The notes: a model not told the origin generated them from the sequence alone. A stretch of DNA of 64,000 nt from an uncultured delta proteobacterium (GCA_963832165.1 CAWHTE010000007.1:928001-992000), one strand, 5' to 3'; positions 46,053 to 53,412 are shown, counted from the first letter of the stretch. Translations and numbers: made by a program.

Positions 46053-46889
46053 TCAGCCGCTCTTCGTGAAGCGATCCCGGAGCGCCCGTCCTCCCGAGAC
46101 CCGAGAGAGGCCGCGAATGCCGAAGCCTCCATCGAAGTTCAGGATCGAGCCCGTTGCAGGTGCGGATTCGTCTCGCGCGGCGAAGAACACGTAGGCGGCC
46201 GCGTACTCCTCGGCGCTCGGAATGCGCCCGAGCGGTATGAAGTCCGGAGCGATCTTCGCGAGGCCGAGACTCGAGATCGTTCTCTGGTCCATCCCCAGAC
46301 TGGCGGGGCCGGCGAGGTTCGTCTCGATCGCGCCCGGCGCGATCCCATTGACGCGCACCGCGGGCGCGAGCTCGAACGCGAGCTGCCGCACGAGCCCGAC
46401 GAGCGCGTGTTTGCTCATCGTGTAGAGAGCACCGCCGCCATCCGGATAGAAGCCGGCGTTGGAGATCGTGACCAAGAGCGACCCCGCCGAGCGCACGAGC
46501 GCGGGGAGGGCGGCCTTCGCGAGCAGCAGGGGACCCTTGCTGTTGACCCCTACCACTTCGTCGAACGCGGGCCCGATCGCGTCTTCATCGAGGTCGGCGA
46601 GCGCACGGGAGTAGTCCCAGATGCCGGCGTTCGCGATGGCACAGTCGAGCTGGCCGAACGCGTGCACACACCGCGCGACGGCGTCTCTGTTGCTGTCGAC
46701 GGATCGGACGTCGCCGACGAGCGCCGCGATCCGCGCTCCGTGGTCGCGGCGAAGTGCGTCGACACCCGCCTCGGATCGATCCAGGATCGCGACCCGCGCG
46801 CCCTCGGCGACGAAGCGGTCCACGATCGCCCGCCCGAGACCCGAGGCCCCGCCGGTCACGAGCGCTACCTGCCCCTCGAGCCGGCCCAT
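46053..46889 (-). CDS. cis-dihydrodiol dehydrogenase (BphB/HcaB-like SDR)
   Basis: TGGASGLG, NAGIWDY, SNAGFYPDGGGALYTMSKHA, FELAP. Confidence 0.88.
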   Translation of the reverse strand: MGRLEGQVALVTGGASGLGRAIVDRFVAEGARVAILDRSEAGVDALRRDHGARIAALVGDVRSVDSNRDAVARCVHAFGQLDCAIANAGIWDYSRALADLDEDAIGPAFDEVVGVNSKGPLLLAKAALPALVRSAGSLLVTISNAGFYPDGGGALYTMSKHALVGLVRQLAFELAPAVRVNGIAPGAIETNLAGPASLGMDQRTISSLGLAKIAPDFIPLGRIPSAEEYAAAYVFFAARDESAPATGSILNFDGGFGIRGLSRVSGGRALRDRFTKSG

Positions 46890-46943
46890 GGTGGGACTCC
46901 TTCAACTACCTTCCCCTGCGTATTGTTCGCGAAGGAGACGGAG

Positions 46944-48284
46944 ATGGACACCCCCAACGCGAGGCAATGGGTCGACTTCGAGAAGGGGCTCGTCGACCGG
47001 ATCATCTTCTCGGATCCCGAGATCTACCGGATCGAGATGGAGCGGATCTTCGCCCGCGCCTGGAGCTTCGTCTGCCACGAGTCGCAGATCCCCCGCGTTG
47101 GCGACTTCTTCCAGACCTACATCGGCGAAGACCGGATCCTCGCGGTCCGCAACAAGCAGGGCACCGTGTCCGTGTTGCTCAATACCTGCCGGCACCGCGC
47201 AAACGCCGTGTGTCGCGCCGAGCAGGGGAACGCGAAGGTCTTCACCTGTCCCTATCACGGGTGGTCCTATGGGCTCGACGGCGAGCTCGTGGGCGTGCCG
47301 GGCCTCAAGGACTTCTACCGCAGCGACCTCGACAAGAAGGAATGGGGGCTCGCGCGAGCCGCGCACGTGACGAGCTACCGCGGACTCGTCTTCGCGACCC
47401 TCGATCCGGCGGCGGTTCCGCTCGACGAGTATCTGGGGGAGGTCGGGCGGATCGGGCTCGATTTCATCGCCGAACGCGGCGAGATCGAGGTGATCGACGG
47501 CGTCCAGAAGAACGTCGTCGCGTGCAACTGGAAGCTCGCAGTGGACAACCTCTTCGACTGGTACCACCCCGTGGTATCGCATCGCTCCGCGATCCAGTCC
47601 GGCGTCTTCCCGAGGCTTCAAGACGAAGAGGTCGCCTTCGCCCCGATGAGCCAGATGGTGATGCTAGGCGAATACGGGCACGGCATCGGCGGTCCGATGA
47701 TCTCCGAAGACGTCATGGCGCAGGTGCGCGCGCACGTCGGCGATCCCGGCGCTACAGCCGCGCGCCTGAACGTGGAGCCGTGGCGATTCCGCGCGAAGGC
47801 GCAGGAAGCGCTCGGCCCGCATGGAATCCGGTCGCGGGGACACCCGAGCATCTTCCCCAACGTCTGGATCACGCTGAACGGCTCTCAGCTCTGTCTCCGG
47901 ATCCCGCGCGGTCCGCAGAAGACCGAGCTCTGGTGGTTCACGTTCGCGAACAAGAACGCGACTCCGGAGCAGAGGCAATCGCTCGTCCGGATCACCACGC
48001 ACATGTTTGGTCCAGCGGGACTCCTCGAGCAGGACGACGGAGAGAACTGGGACCAGTGCACTCGCGGAACGATCGGACCTGTTGCGCGGCGCTACCCGCT
48101 GAACTTCGCGATGGGCCGCGGCCATGATCGGGTGCGAAACGACGGGGGCCAAAGGCGCGTCGAGACCGTGGTGAACGAGCACGGGCAGCGCTGGACGTAC
48201 CGCGCCTGGGCCGAATGGATGGATGCCGTGGACTGGCCCGATCTCCGGAGGAACCATTCGCCCGCGCCGAGCGGCGCCATCTAG
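46944..48284 (+). CDS. Aromatic ring-hydroxylating dioxygenase alpha subunit
   Basis: Rieske CRHR..CPYHGW; NWK..DN..DWYH..SH; GPAGLLEQDDGENW. Confidence 0.93.
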   Translation: MDTPNARQWVDFEKGLVDRIIFSDPEIYRIEMERIFARAWSFVCHESQIPRVGDFFQTYIGEDRILAVRNKQGTVSVLLNTCRHRANAVCRAEQGNAKVFTCPYHGWSYGLDGELVGVPGLKDFYRSDLDKKEWGLARAAHVTSYRGLVFATLDPAAVPLDEYLGEVGRIGLDFIAERGEIEVIDGVQKNVVACNWKLAVDNLFDWYHPVVSHRSAIQSGVFPRLQDEEVAFAPMSQMVMLGEYGHGIGGPMISEDVMAQVRAHVGDPGATAARLNVEPWRFRAKAQEALGPHGIRSRGHPSIFPNVWITLNGSQLCLRIPRGPQKTELWWFTFANKNATPEQRQSLVRITTHMFGPAGLLEQDDGENWDQCTRGTIGPVARRYPLNFAMGRGHDRVRNDGGQRRVETVVNEHGQRWTYRAWAEWMDAVDWPDLRRNHSPAPSGAI

Positions 48285-48293
48285 GGGCTCGCA

Positions 48294-48812
48294 ATGGATC
48301 GCGAAATCGCTGCGGTGCTGCTGCAGCACGAGGTCGAGCAGTTCTATTACGCGGAAGCCGCGCTTCTCGACGAGCGTCGCTTCACCGAGTGGCTCGACCT
48401 CTTGACCTCCGACATCCACTACTGGATGCCGATCCGGCGGACCGTGATGAACGCCGACCTCGACCAGGAGTTCACCAAGCCCGGCGCGATGGCGTTCTTC
48501 GACGACGACAAGACCATGCTCGAGGCCCGCGTCAAGAAGCTCGCCACGGGTTACGCATGGTCCGAGGACCCGCCCTCGCGAACGAGACACATGGTGAACA
48601 ACGTGCGCATTCTCGCGGTGGACGGAGACGAGCTGACCGTCGAGTCCAACTTCCACCTCTACCGCACGCGTCTCGAATCCGAGGAGGACGGCTGGCTCGG
48701 CCGGCGCCGTGATCGCCTCCGCCGCGTGGACGGCGCGCTGCGGATCGCCGAACGCCACGTGTTCCTGGATCAGACACTGATCCTGTCGCGCAACCTCAGC
48801 AACTTCTTCTGA
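48294..48812 (+). CDS. Aromatic ring-hydroxylating dioxygenase beta subunit
   Basis: EAALLDERRF, YWMP, WSEDPPSRTRH, NLSNFF. Confidence 0.93.
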   Translation: MDREIAAVLLQHEVEQFYYAEAALLDERRFTEWLDLLTSDIHYWMPIRRTVMNADLDQEFTKPGAMAFFDDDKTMLEARVKKLATGYAWSEDPPSRTRHMVNNVRILAVDGDELTVESNFHLYRTRLESEEDGWLGRRRDRLRRVDGALRIAERHVFLDQTLILSRNLSNFF

Positions 48813-48823
48813 GGAGAATCGCC

Positions 48824-49714
48824 GTGACTCGCATCGCCCGCCTCGGATATCTCGAATTCGAAGTCTCCGATCCAAGCGCGTGGAGGACCTTTGCGGCCGA
48901 TCGGCTGGGTCTCGCGGTGGGTGCCGAGCACGCGGATGGCTCGATGGCGCTGCGCATGGACGAGCAGGCGCAGCGGATCTTTCTCCGCCCGGGCGAGCGC
49001 GACGACCTCGCCTGCGCGGGCCTGGAGGTGGCGGACGAGGCGTCGCTGCGAGCGCTCGCGACCCAGCTCGAGGCGGCTGGAGTTCCGGTCCTCGAGGCGA
49101 GCGCCGAGGTGGCGACACAGCGCGGCGTAGATCATCTCTACCGGCTGGAGGACCCGAGCGGCATTCCGATCGAGCTCTTCAGCGGTCCGAAGTCGGGCAG
49201 CCGCTTCTCGTCCAGCCTCGTGCCGTCCGGCTTCTGCACCGGGGACGAGGGCCTCGGGCACGCCGTCGTGCTAGTCCGCAATGCGGAGAGCACGCAGCAT
49301 TTCTACTGCGATCTGCTCGGCATGCGCGTCTCCGACTACATCGAGTCGGAAATCGCTCCGGGCCGCAAGCTCCGGATCGCCTTTCTGCACGCGAACGCCC
49401 GGCACCACACGCTGGCCTTCTTCGAGGGGCCGCCCCGGAAGCGGATCCACCACTTCATGATCGAGATGAACGCGATGAACGATGTGGGGCTCGCATGGGA
49501 CCGCTGCGTCGACGCGGGCGTGCCGATCGCCAACGCGCTCGGTCAGCATCCGAACGACCAGATGTTCTCGTTCTATGCGCGCACGCCCTCGGGCTTCGCG
49601 GTCGAGGTCGGCTGGGGCGGTCGCAAGGTGGACGACGCAACGTGGGAAGTCCGCACCTACGATCGGATGAGCAGCTGGGGGCACCGACCCGCGCTCGACC
49701 GGGGAGCGCGCTGA
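48824..49714 (+). CDS. Type I extradiol dioxygenase (BphC/HsaC-like)
   Basis: LGYL, GLGHAV, NARHHTLA, HHFMIE, LGQHPND..SFY..TPSGFAVE. Confidence 0.92.
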   Translation: MTRIARLGYLEFEVSDPSAWRTFAADRLGLAVGAEHADGSMALRMDEQAQRIFLRPGERDDLACAGLEVADEASLRALATQLEAAGVPVLEASAEVATQRGVDHLYRLEDPSGIPIELFSGPKSGSRFSSSLVPSGFCTGDEGLGHAVVLVRNAESTQHFYCDLLGMRVSDYIESEIAPGRKLRIAFLHANARHHTLAFFEGPPRKRIHHFMIEMNAMNDVGLAWDRCVDAGVPIANALGQHPNDQMFSFYARTPSGFAVEVGWGGRKVDDATWEVRTYDRMSSWGHRPALDRGAR

Positions 49715-49736: not shown

Positions 49737-50399
49737 TCAGGCTCGATTTTCCGACCCCAGCCACCTGAAGAACAGCGCTGCAGAGAGCGCACCGAAGAGC
49801 TGCGCGCCGATGAAGGCTGGCACGTCGACCGGCCGGATGCCGGCGAACGTGGCCGTCATGGCGCGCGCCAGCGTAACGGCGGGGTTTGCGAACGACGTAG
49901 ACGCCGTGAACCAGTACGCAGCCGTGATGTACGCGCCGACCGCGAACGGTGCCGCGCTGCTGCGCGTCCGCGAGCAGGACAAGACGATGCCGACGAGGCC
50001 GAACGTGGCGACGTACTCACTGAACCCTTGCGACAGGCCCGATCGAACGTGCGCCGACGCAGAGATCACGGGCTCACCGAACATCAAGTGCGCCGCAATC
50101 ACGCCGAGCACGGCTCCGCTGACCTGCGCGGCGGCGTAGCCGAGAGCGTCCCTCCGCGCCAAGCCGCCCTCGAGGACCACGCACCACGTGACGAGCGGAT
50201 TGAAGTGGGCGCCCGAGATCGGGCCGAACGCGAGGATCAGGGCGACGAGCGCGCTGCCGGTGGCGATCGAGTTCGCCAGCAGCGCGATGGCGACGTTCCC
50301 ACCCGCGAGGCGCTCGCCCATGATTCCCGATCCGACGATGGCCGCGAGCAGGAATGCGGTGCCGACGCCTTCCGCCGCCATGCGCCGAGCGCACGTCAC
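49737..50399 (-). CDS. MIP/aquaporin family channel (AqpS-like, arsenic-associated)
   Basis: GSGIMGERL, SGAHFNPLVT, AYWFTASTSFANPAVT; GTG start overlaps the TauD stop. Confidence 0.9.
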   Translation of the reverse strand: MTCARRMAAEGVGTAFLLAAIVGSGIMGERLAGGNVAIALLANSIATGSALVALILAFGPISGAHFNPLVTWCVVLEGGLARRDALGYAAAQVSGAVLGVIAAHLMFGEPVISASAHVRSGLSQGFSEYVATFGLVGIVLSCSRTRSSAAPFAVGAYITAAYWFTASTSFANPAVTLARAMTATFAGIRPVDVPAFIGAQLFGALSAALFFRWLGSENRA

Positions 50400-51463
50400 G
50401 GTGCGGCTCGAGTCGAGGCGGCCGTGACCGGCAGGGTCGCCGCGTCCGCCATCGTCGCATCCGATGTCCGGTCCTGCTGCGCGGGAACTCCACTCTGCAG
50501 GAGGGAATCGCCATCCGTGAAGACGCGGTGCGAGGTGAGCCACAGTCGCAGCAGGTGCCGCTTGCGTTCGGGTTCGGCGTAGTCCTCGAACTCGGTGCGG
50601 GCGTGGAGGATCGCGGAGTTCTTGAGCCACTGGATGTCGCCCGCGCGGAAGTCCATGTCGAGATGGATCTGGGGATCGACCGCGATCGCGTCGATCAGAT
50701 CGATGACTTCGCGCTGCGACCGCGTGAGCCGCGGCGCCGCTGCGTGGCGCTGCGAATCGCGGATGTACCAGCCGATGTAGAACGTTCGGATCCGTCCGTC
50801 TGCCTCACGGCAGATCGGAATCGAGAAGTAGGGCGGCTCGCCGGGACCTTCCTCACCGTTGCGGTCGAAAGGGAAGGGCTCGTGGAGCGTCGGGATGAGA
50901 TCGGGCCTGCGTCGAAGGATCTCGTTGTAGATGGCGAGCGAGCTCGCGATGCGACTGGTTCCGCCGGACCTGGCAGGACGCAGGCAGAGCAGGCCCACGA
51001 TGTCCGATCCGTCGCAGTGGAAGCCGAGCTGCTCGCGCGTTCGATAGAGGCGCAGCGTCGGATCGCGGCGCTCGAGACCCGCATCGCGCACGTGTCCGAG
51101 CAGATCGCCCGCCGCGTTCTGCGAAACCGCTCTGCCGAGGTGGAGTCCGAGGCCCCAGTACGCCAACGACGAGTCGTCCTCGCCGTACCGCTCGACCGGC
51201 ACGCCGCGCACGAGCACGAAGCCTCGTCCGGTGTCGAGCACATCGAGCCAGTCCGCCGCCGAACGGGCCAGAGCCCCGAGCGGGAAATCGCCGCGAGTCA
51301 GCTCGCCGAGCGGCTTTCCGGTGCTGCGCGCATGCGCGACCGCGCGATCGAGGTCCAGGGTCTCCTCGGCGGAGAGCACGTGAACCCAATCGCGCCGCGG
51401 CGCCATCTCGGATCCGACCCAGGCGGAATCACTCTTCACGGGTTGCATCTGGATGCTCGTCAT
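50396..51463 (-). CDS. TauD/TfdA family Fe(II)/2-oxoglutarate dioxygenase
   Basis: GRGFVLVRG, FHCDGSD (HxD), N..ILHART (distal His), RHLLRLWL; ATGA overlap with the arsR stop. Confidence 0.9.
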   Translation of the reverse strand: MTSIQMQPVKSDSAWVGSEMAPRRDWVHVLSAEETLDLDRAVAHARSTGKPLGELTRGDFPLGALARSAADWLDVLDTGRGFVLVRGVPVERYGEDDSSLAYWGLGLHLGRAVSQNAAGDLLGHVRDAGLERRDPTLRLYRTREQLGFHCDGSDIVGLLCLRPARSGGTSRIASSLAIYNEILRRRPDLIPTLHEPFPFDRNGEEGPGEPPYFSIPICREADGRIRTFYIGWYIRDSQRHAAAPRLTRSQREVIDLIDAIAVDPQIHLDMDFRAGDIQWLKNSAILHARTEFEDYAEPERKRHLLRLWLTSHRVFTDGDSLLQSGVPAQQDRTSDATMADAATLPVTAASTRAAP

Positions 51464-51840
51464 GCGGACCTCGCAGCGCGCCGCTCCATCGAGGCGGTCA
51501 ATCGCTTCGGCGGCACCAGCGCGCTGCAGAGTTGTTGCAGGCGTTCCAACCGAAGGCGGTAGTAGATCCAGGTCGCGCGGCGCTCGCGCTCGAGCAGACC
51601 CGCCTCCGTGAGCACCTTCAAGTGGTGGCTCACCGTGGGCTGGCTGAGTCCGAGCGGCTCGGTGAGGTTGCACACGCACGCTTCACCTCCCGGCTGGGCG
51701 GCGAGGTAGCTCAGCAGGCGCAGCCGGCCCGGATCGCCCAGGGCTCGGAACAGCGTGGCCAGCTCCGCGGCCTCCTCGGTTTCGAGCCGGCCCGTGAGGA
51801 CCGGCGCGCAACAACGGTTCGAGGTCTTCTTGATCGGCAT
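51460..51840 (-). CDS. arsR: ArsR/SmtB family metalloregulator
   Basis: N-terminal CC, ALGDPGRL, EACVCNL, SQPTVSHHLKVL. Confidence 0.9.
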   Translation of the reverse strand: MPIKKTSNRCCAPVLTGRLETEEAAELATLFRALGDPGRLRLLSYLAAQPGGEACVCNLTEPLGLSQPTVSHHLKVLTEAGLLERERRATWIYYRLRLERLQQLCSALVPPKRLTASMERRAARSA

Positions 51841-51842
51841 GG

Positions 51843-51891
51843 GTCAATATTGACATATATCGATGGATGTCACAATATCGATATCCATCGA
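51843..51891. promoter_or_regulatory. Divergent promoter region with inverted repeats (probable ArsR operator)
   Basis: Palindrome GTCAATATTGAC (51843-51854); IR TCGATGGAT-N14-ATCCATCGA (51860-51891); AT-rich. Confidence 0.7.
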
Positions 51892-51908
51892 AATAGGAGG
51901 AGCCCTCC

Positions 51909-52328
51909 GTGGCCAACACCTTCCACGTCTCGTTGAATGTCGAGAACATCTCCGACGCGGTTGCGCGATACCGCAAGATCCTCGGCGCCGAGCCGGCGAA
52001 GGTTCGCGAGGACTACGCGAAGTTCGAGCTCGCCGACCCGCCGCTGATCCTCTCCTTGAACCTCGGCGGCGAGCCGGGCACCGTCGGACATCTCGGCATC
52101 CGCTATCCCGAATCCGCCACGGTGGCGAACGAGCTGCGACGGGCCGAGGGCGACGCACTGGAACCGCTCCGCCAGGACGGCGTCACATGCTGTTATGCGA
52201 AGGCCGACAAATTCTGGGTGAACGACGCCGACGGCCTCGCGTGGGAGATGTATACGTTCCTGGCCGATGCGGAGCCCGAGCGGGCCCCTGCGCCTCCGCC
52301 GGCATCCGGCTGCGGGTGCGCCGCCTGA
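51909..52328 (+). CDS. arsI: ArsI/CadI family VOC metalloenzyme (C-As lyase-like)
   Basis: FHVSLNV, YAKF..DPP, GHLGI, TCCYAKADKFWV..WE; SD AGGAGG. Confidence 0.82.
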   Translation: MANTFHVSLNVENISDAVARYRKILGAEPAKVREDYAKFELADPPLILSLNLGGEPGTVGHLGIRYPESATVANELRRAEGDALEPLRQDGVTCCYAKADKFWVNDADGLAWEMYTFLADAEPERAPAPPPASGCGCAA

Positions 52329-52341
52329 GAAGGATGAAGGA

Positions 52342-52893
52342 ATGAGCGAGCGCATCTACGACGTGCTCTTCCTCTGTACGGGAAACTCCGCTCGGAGCAT
52401 CCTTGCCGAATCGATCCTGAACCGCGCAGGCCACGGTCGGTTCCGCGCTCACAGTGCCGGAAGCCTTCCGAAGGGCCGCGTCCATCCGATGGCGCTCGAG
52501 CTGCTGCGCGCACGCGGGTACGAGACGAATGCGCTGCGCAGCAAGAGCTGGGACGAGTTTGCGAATCCCGGAGCTCCGAAGCTCGACTTCGTGTTCACCG
52601 TATGCGACAACGCGGCGGCCGAAGTCTGCCCGATCTGGCCCGGCCAGCCGATGACGGCGCACTGGGGGATTGCGGATCCCGCGGCCGTCTCGGGAACTCC
52701 TCTGGACCAGAGCCGCGCATTCCGGCGGGCCTATCAGGAGCTGGCTCGCCGGATCGATCTGTTCCTCGCGCTACCGCTCTCCAGCATCGACCGGATGAGC
52801 TTGAAGAACCGACTGGACGAGATTGGCAAGTCGCCTCGTGCGATGGAGGCGGCAGGCCGCGACACCCGCCCAGCCGAAGGCGAGCAGGAATGA
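52342..52893 (+). CDS. arsC: Arsenate reductase, LMW-PTP family
   Basis: LFLCTGNSARS, RSKSWDEF, TVCDNAAAEVCPIWPG, HWG..DP. Confidence 0.92.
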   Translation: MSERIYDVLFLCTGNSARSILAESILNRAGHGRFRAHSAGSLPKGRVHPMALELLRARGYETNALRSKSWDEFANPGAPKLDFVFTVCDNAAAEVCPIWPGQPMTAHWGIADPAAVSGTPLDQSRAFRRAYQELARRIDLFLALPLSSIDRMSLKNRLDEIGKSPRAMEAAGRDTRPAEGEQE

Positions 52894-53412
52894 GCTCGAC
52901 GGCTCCGGCACGACCGTCACCACCACGTCGTTGAACACGTTGCTGAATTCCGGCGGCGTCATCTCGAACGGATTGCCGTTGTGCAGCGCAACGATCCGGC
53001 TCGAGTCGAGCATCGAGAGCGTCTCGTCGGGAGCGCCCGCGACCATCGTCACCTCGGCCACGGGGAACTGGCCGTCCGCTGGCAGCGGGTTGCTGGTGAA
53101 GTCGCCGACGATCGAGAAGTGGAGCGGGTCGGCGTCCGCGTCGTAGACGAACGAGAAGCCATTGCCCAACTCCACCGAGGGCGATCCGAACGCGAACGGC
53201 GCGGAGAGCTCGAAGTCGAGCTGGACCGAAGTGACCGGTGTGTCGCCCGGGAAGACCACCATGATCAGCACGTAGTTCGCGCCGCTCTGCGCCGTGGCGG
53301 GCGGGAAGGGCTGGACGTCGAGAAAGGGATGCGCCGCCGCGAGGCCGGGAGACCAGAAGGCCAGGACAACGATGGCGCGTCGGCAGACCTGCAATAACCG
53401 CTTGAACCGCAT
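52771..53412 (-). CDS. PEP-CTERM sorting domain-containing secreted protein
   Basis: Signal peptide; cohesin-like beta body; VPEPSSSFLLAFGWAGVAACRLHRTRR. Confidence 0.75.
   Translation of the reverse strand: MRFKRLLQVCRRAIVVLAFWSPGLAAAHPFLDVQPFPPATAQSGANYVLIMVVFPGDTPVTSVQLDFELSAPFAFGSPSVELGNGFSFVYDADADPLHFSIVGDFTSNPLPADGQFPVAEVTMVAGAPDETLSMLDSSRIVALHNGNPFEMTPPEFSNVFNDVVVTVVPEPSSSFLLAFGWAGVAACRLHRTRRLANLVQSVLQAHPVDAGER

Follow-up and report, generated by a model that had tools for sequence, protein, structure and literature searches.

A putative Fe(II)/2-oxoglutarate oxygenase recurring in bacterial arsenic operons

How toxic arsenic is in soils and rice paddies is governed by methylarsenite and dimethylarsenic. 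In the available portions of the sources, ArsM is described as releasing dimethylarsenite, DMAs(III), and ArsH as oxidising trivalent organoarsenicals (PMC6138428), ArsI being the only demethylating enzyme listed and ArsH the methylarsenite oxidase (PMC6138428, PMC13641113). The accessible parts of PMC6138428, PMC6205960, PMC9623898, PMC12607644 and PMC13641113 make no mention of a 2-oxoglutarate enzyme in arsenic operons, and a literature search, with subscription journals and supplements outside its scope, found no description of a TauD-like arsenic gene, two apparent matches proving to be an author's name and a table row on something else. Here we analyze a stretch of 64,000 nucleotides from an uncultured delta proteobacterium (GCA_963832165.1, CAWHTE010000007.1:928001-992000; hereafter, the window), in which a gene for an Fe(II)/2-oxoglutarate oxygenase lies within an arsenic operon. 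Judged from sequence comparisons, this is a real, recurring arsenic-operon oxygenase of known fold that has apparently gone undescribed. The chemistry of arsenic operons would be enlarged by such a 2-oxoglutarate enzyme, and their gene content by a gene that annotation now misses.

An earlier note on this DNA had proposed that arsR, a TauD-family gene and an aquaporin gene are translationally coupled and divergent from arsI-arsC. All five genes were found in that arrangement with intact frames (49737..52893). The trio on the minus strand runs arsR, dioxygenase, aquaporin, with 4-nucleotide overlaps at both junctions: the ATGA at 51460-51463 (minus) superimposes the arsR stop on the dioxygenase start, and the GTGA at 50396-50399 the dioxygenase stop on the GTG start of the aquaporin gene, whose translation could instead begin further on, at the ATG at 50382. 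The features of the locus are the following.

50396..51463, minus strand: Fe(II)/2-oxoglutarate oxygenase, 355 amino acids, FrbJ/TtnM (clavaminate-synthase-like) branch; H149, D151, H287, R302, R306
51460..51840, minus strand: arsR, 126 amino acids; Cys10-Cys11, Cys55/Cys57; NF033788, 101 bits (cut-off 55)
49737..50399, minus strand: aquaporin (MIP), 220 amino acids; NPL/NPA motifs; PF00230, E 8e-22
51841..51908, no strand: divergent spacer, candidate ArsR operator and promoters; inverted repeats, sigma-70-like site
51909..52328, plus strand: arsI/cadI C-As lyase family, 139 amino acids; His6, His61, Glu113, Cys94-Cys95
52342..52893, plus strand: arsC-like reductase of the LMWP fold, 183 amino acids; Cys12, Cys88, Cys96; PF01451

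Linkage of the oxygenase to arsenic genes

Homologous loci were gathered by genome, metagenome and whole-genome searches; duplicates (L141, L147, L147b) were removed before the tree was built, as were copies that are fragmentary or frameshifted (L036, L145, L146, L155), and two second copies within a locus were excluded from the linkage counts. In the first tree, of 135 rows, the window falls in a group of 68 rows (SH-aLRT 95), referred to here as the W-Y group after a motif described below. Linkage was scored within a radius of 3 kb, with arsenic proteins from these loci as queries, self-hits excluded and score thresholds set by us. An arsI, arsC, arsM, acr3, arsN2 or aquaporin gene occurs within that distance in 38 of the 68 W-Y loci, the window included, and in 43 of the 68 if ArsR is counted, as against none of the 65 homologues outside the group. 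Restricting the comparison to loci with flanks of at least 1.5 kb on both sides leaves 16 of 31 W-Y loci linked (19 with ArsR) versus 0 of 36 others. Since the queries derive from the W-Y group itself, the neighbours of the outside loci were also scanned with NCBIfam, and none of the 116 near neighbours scanned, out of 128, scored above an arsenic family cut-off.

The same tendency is seen in 20 loci fetched after the queries had been fixed, 10 of which carry a specific arsenic gene (14 counting ArsR), and in the host's order, where the 22 genomes passing E<=1e-108 among 193 searched include 14 with a specific arsenic gene nearby and 17 when ArsR is counted. Thus, the homologue-neighbourhood check proposed in the earlier note came out positive, the nearest homologues lying beside arsenic genes far more often than the others. 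P-values for linkage overstate the case, because kin are not independent (L047 and L048 are identical). Partners confirmed above cut-off comprise eight ArsM, four Acr3, three ArsI and one ArsN2; furthermore, ArsP adjoins the dioxygenase in L228, and the ArsC partners are of both the LMWP and the PF03960 type. The immediate neighbour is an arsenic gene in 43 of 69 loci, and 30 gene orders were recorded, some of them mere truncations. The commonest non-regulator neighbour is ArsI, present within 3 kb in 26 of 68 loci and directly adjacent in 19 of 69.

Several fusions join the dioxygenase to arsenic proteins. A dioxygenase-ArsM fusion occurs twice (L197, 609 amino acids, and P0283, 625 amino acids; 70% identical to each other). 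Single records, for which assembly or gene-calling errors are possible, hold a dioxygenase-aquaporin fusion of 571 amino acids (P0041), an ArsN2-like acetyltransferase-dioxygenase fusion (P0136; only 92 bits against a cut-off of 125) and a SigZ-dioxygenase fusion (P0149). Recurring linkage and fusions to arsenic proteins together bear out the suggestion of a new arsenic-operon enzyme, as far as sequence can tell. The oxygenase is best explained as an accessory component that belongs regularly to arsenic operons under ArsR control, and an arsenic-related role of some kind appears likely.

Arsenic operons with the oxygenase gene occur in Myxococcota, Caulobacteraceae and Binatia-level Deltaproteobacteria and on metagenome contigs; identical proteins are recorded from two named Phenylobacterium species (WP_110450285.1, WP_211937035.1). 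An arsR-dioxygenase-arsI cassette (L025) lies on a contig labelled Nitrosopumilus, yet its dioxygenase groups with bacterial copies. In L036 frameshifts, possibly assembly errors, break the homologues of the dioxygenase, arsC and arsI alike, and in L198 (1343-2533) an ArsI-ArsM fusion, a single frame of 396 amino acids joining a demethylating and a methylating enzyme, stands directly behind the dioxygenase. A hydrophobic protein of about 180 amino acids directly adjoins the dioxygenase in five loci (L060:4489-5001, L076:6003-6551, L087:5975-6529, L101:1089-1598 and L229:6047-6583), with ArsR or ArsI near four of them; among the members scanned it has no Pfam or NCBIfam match, and it may be another undescribed arsenic-operon gene.

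Other surroundings were also met. The Halieaceae W-Y copies L029, L031 and L032, which have no arsenic gene close by, are found downstream of genes for a B12-binding radical SAM protein and a V4R-domain protein, and two members of the non-arsenic sister group, L080 and L165, adjoin genes for UGSC-family (seleno)proteins scoring below cut-off. All 26 plasmid homologue records stay below 46% identity; the four inspected have no adjacent arsenic gene, and two proteins translated from a Bacillus plasmid carry no W-Y motif. In L184 (NZ_CP064267.1 51911-65616), an arsRBCDA operon is separated by an IS1182 element, over a distance of about 5 kb, from two FrbJ-like dioxygenases without the motif that are accompanied by a CoA ligase and an MFS transporter; the proximity is probably incidental.

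The oxygenase and its host locus

The window protein matches PF02668 (E 2.6e-34, 119.8 bits against a gathering threshold of 27). The iron triad H149-x-D151...H287 is intact, as are the C-terminal R302, presumably the 2-oxoglutarate-binding residue, and R306, so that the HxD...H signature and Arg region described earlier are indeed kept. H149, D151 and R138 are invariant among 146 homologues, and conservation is 90% or more at H287, R302 and R306. The label "TauD" holds at the Pfam level and goes no further: no NCBIfam model, including NF007104 for taurine dioxygenase, matched at E<=0.001, although that library did detect a TauD-like neighbour protein elsewhere with 283 bits. Taurine dioxygenase TauD proper was consequently rejected. 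FrbJ and TtnM were the sole two phmmer matches among solved enzymes. They are also the top matches of the predicted model (predicted local distance difference test, pLDDT, 95.7) in Foldseek and structure comparison, with Z 32.1 to each of 7n7v and 5eqn and 26.1 for the next, about 6 Z lower. The dioxygenase hence belongs to the FrbJ/TtnM branch, which is closest both by sequence and by structure; amino-acid and betaine hydroxylases are among the further neighbours of the fold, and the ESM Atlas returned generic TauD clusters only.

The subgroup motif reads F-Y-I-G-W232-Y-I-R in the window protein and F-[YF]-I-[GP]-W-Y-I-R in close relatives. Trp232 occupies 63 of 63 subgroup rows of the alignment and is not the top residue in any other group. 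The strict W-Y pattern matches 81 of 83 subgroup rows (both misses still being W-Y) and none of 61 others, a conservation that is partly circular for metagenome hits because the motif was one of the two scan patterns; it is also present in all nine loci chosen by score to the window protein alone.

Regarding the remaining products of the locus, the best solved match of ArsR is 6j0e, titled "Arsenic responsive repressor ArsR" (E 4e-22), in which the CC pair finds its counterpart. The aquaporin, which we take to be AqpS-like, scores under the NCBIfam MIP cut-offs. ArsI exceeds its family cut-off (NF041414, 119 bits against 116), aligns to 5c4p/5d4f (E 2e-21) and keeps the iron ligands and the CC pair expected of the family, its residues matching Gln8/His65/Glu117/Cys98-99 as listed in the available part of PMC6138428. 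The ArsC-like protein matches solved arsenate reductases such as 1jl3 (E 5.5e-14), under the NCBIfam ArsC cut-offs, TIGR02691 included.

The AT-rich palindromic spacer noticed earlier is evident between arsR and arsI as 68 bp of 43% GC with imperfect inverted repeats; the 500-base windows around it have about 64-70%. Its ATCGA half-sites are kept in nine aligned homologous spacers (ten spacers in all). It contains one sigma-70-like site on the minus strand (51873-51846) versus 0.3 expected, and a TTGACA on the plus strand (51850-51855). The conserved inverted half-sites make it a candidate ArsR operator.

No second arsenic locus was found in the host genome (89% complete), which has one match each for the aquaporin, ArsI and ArsC, and neither ArsH nor Acr3; two further dioxygenase paralogues (L153/L154, 53% and 41% identity) are devoid of arsenic neighbours. 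A recent foreign origin of the operon is unsupported, GC at third codon positions being 0.79-0.87 versus 0.81-0.86 in three neighbours. Reads of four DNA runs yielded short pieces only, none spanning the stretch. An aromatic ring-degradation cluster (46053-49714), with a dehydrogenase, a BphC-like extradiol dioxygenase and, judging by sequence, Rieske-type dioxygenase subunits, ends 22 bp from the aquaporin gene; a functional tie was rejected, as its genes recur in only two single loci. On the other side, an open reading frame of 213 amino acids (52771-53412, minus) overlaps the arsC end; its product, without Pfam or NCBIfam match, starts with a signal-like stretch and has a VPEP motif at the C-terminus.

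Proposed role and competing explanations

Because the gene sits inside an arsenic operon and its relatives stand beside arsenic genes in many bacteria, it probably encodes an undescribed enzyme for detoxifying methylated arsenic. We tentatively favour, without giving it even chances, the oxidation of trivalent methylarsenicals in place of ArsH. Trivalent arsenic would release ArsR, and the oxygenase, with O2 and 2-oxoglutarate, would form an Fe(IV)=O species whose oxygen passes to the arsenic atom in methylarsenite or dimethylarsenite, either entering from outside or set free by ArsM. The less toxic pentavalent product would exit through the aquaporin, and the enzyme would thus do the job of ArsH by a different chemistry, in parallel to ArsI. 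What recommends this reaction is the ArsM fusion, the coupling to a channel, the lack of ArsH and the replacement of two FrbJ arginines by the aromatic Phe228 and Trp232, which would suit a less anionic, methylated substrate.

As to genome content, ArsH was found in none of the 41 carrier genomes. Of 301 Caulobacteraceae genomes, 83 have it, which breaks down into 0 of 12 carriers versus 83 of 289 others (p 0.02 one-sided, 0.04 two-sided). In the host's order, ArsM is found in 13 of 22 carriers versus 32 of 171 others (p=1e-4); for ArsI the figures are 16 of 22 versus 94 of 171 (p=0.17, not significant), kin not being independent in either comparison. Moreover, ArsI has no match in three Caulobacteraceae genomes whose dioxygenase copy is arsenic-linked. 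The earlier idea of a step "feeding ArsI" is therefore not required.

Several observations weigh against oxidation in place of ArsH. Two later trees do not recover the W-Y group as one branch and put the non-arsenic sister group inside it with weak support; a single origin is not rejected (p-AU 0.47; 56 of 144 rows), and the motif delimits the group better than the tree does. Arsenic linkage is common, not obligatory: 12 of the 31 well-flanked W-Y loci, Halieaceae included, have no arsenic gene or ArsR within 3 kb, and 5 of the 22 carriers in the host's order likewise have none nearby. The 68 proteins are devoid of the CC, CxC or CxxC motifs of the kind used by ArsI and ArsR for trivalent arsenic, and the host genome, at its 89% completeness, shows no ArsM above cut-off. 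Furthermore, both of the closest solved enzymes bear the title of hydroxylase, not of heteroatom oxidase. Finally, the absence of ArsH is weak evidence, since several carriers are close kin and genomes are incomplete, and 25 of the 41 zeros come from the host's order, which has no ArsH baseline, and say little.

That the solved relatives are hydroxylases, one of them acting on phosphonates, and that ArsI is so often adjacent, make oxidative demethylation the main rival, albeit an unlikely one. The As-CH3 carbon of dimethylarsenic, of the pentavalent methylarsenical MAs(V) or of trimethylarsine oxide would be hydroxylated, and the hydroxymethyl product, by analogy with the collapse step of taurine dioxygenase, would lose formaldehyde to give the next-lower trivalent arsenical, handled by ArsI, Acr3 or the aquaporin. 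The enrichment of ArsM among carriers would fit such a reaction, and the available part of a 2026 review calls the mechanism of dimethylarsenic demethylation unclear (PMC13641113). However, the product would be more toxic than the substrate, the ArsM fusion would amount to a futile cycle (though an ArsI-ArsM fusion also exists), and ArsI is neither significantly enriched nor found in all arsenic-linked carriers. Rather doubtful, too, is the broader proposal of a 2-oxoglutarate-dependent family that either demethylates dimethylarsenic or oxidises ArsM products as a fused methylate-then-oxidise enzyme; if true, uncultured bacteria of soils and sediments would thereby gain an aerobic step that has been missing from the arsenic methylation cycle.

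Hydroxylation of a larger organoarsenical beside the arsenic (arsinothricin or its N-acetyl form, arsenobetaine, dimethylarsinoyl-acetate) is improbable. It would accommodate the one ArsN2-like fusion below cut-off, the one ArsN2 neighbour, the amino-acid and betaine hydroxylases among the fold neighbours and the invariant R138; nevertheless, R138 is equally invariant in non-arsenic homologues, and the scanned neighbours (148 of 206 representatives; 42 of 83) include no recurring uptake transporter or catabolic partner, which leaves the arsenobetaine-type catabolism advanced in the earlier note little supported. We give just as little credit to a passenger gene, or to a role with another metal or metalloid such as Sb or Cd, as could be argued from the shared gene order of kin and from the ArsI/CadI model, which names cadmium-induced proteins: linkage survives rearrangement and extends to both ArsC types and to arsenic-specific ArsM, Acr3 and ArsP, and the other homologues show no arsenic linkage. 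Least probable is an indirect stress role that leaves arsenic untouched, be it the repair of a damaged metabolite or the production of succinate from 2-oxoglutarate so as to bypass an arsenite-blocked 2-oxoglutarate dehydrogenase, a target of As(III) according to the available part of PMC12607644; many carriers without neighbouring arsenic genes would agree with it, but it requires a prime substrate and leaves the fusions to ArsM and the aquaporin unexplained.

Comparison with known systems

Trivalent methylarsenical oxidation would bring the oxygenase close to ArsH in proposed role only, both performing the O2-dependent oxidation of trivalent organoarsenicals, as set out for ArsH in the available part of PMC6138428. 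ArsH has a different fold and works with NADPH and FMN, whereas the window protein belongs to PF02668 and has no TIGR02690 or flavodoxin assignment. With the described ArsI operons the locus shares an ArsI equipped with iron ligands and CC pair; in the available portions of those descriptions, however, ArsI has no need of 2-oxoglutarate, and the dioxygenase is an extra gene absent from them.

Among solved enzymes, the tautomycetin hydroxylase TtnM (7n7v) has the same fold (Z 32.1, root-mean-square deviation 2.3, 284 aligned, 34% identity), but it is a polyketide pathway enzyme without the W-Y motif. The phosphonate hydroxylase FrbJ (5eqn) likewise shares the fold (Z 32.1, root-mean-square deviation 1.8, 269 aligned, 30% identity), in addition to the HxD/H triad and the R-H-L-L-R-L-W end. 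It differs in carrying Arg at the positions of Phe228 and Trp232, so that, by its pocket, the window protein is not an FrbJ orthologue; the setting of FrbJ is reportedly FR-900098 biosynthesis, not an arsenic operon. Oxygen transfer to a group-15 atom by an Fe/2-oxoglutarate enzyme is said to have a precedent in HtxA, the hypophosphite/2-oxoglutarate dioxygenase, which we take to be of the PhyH family.

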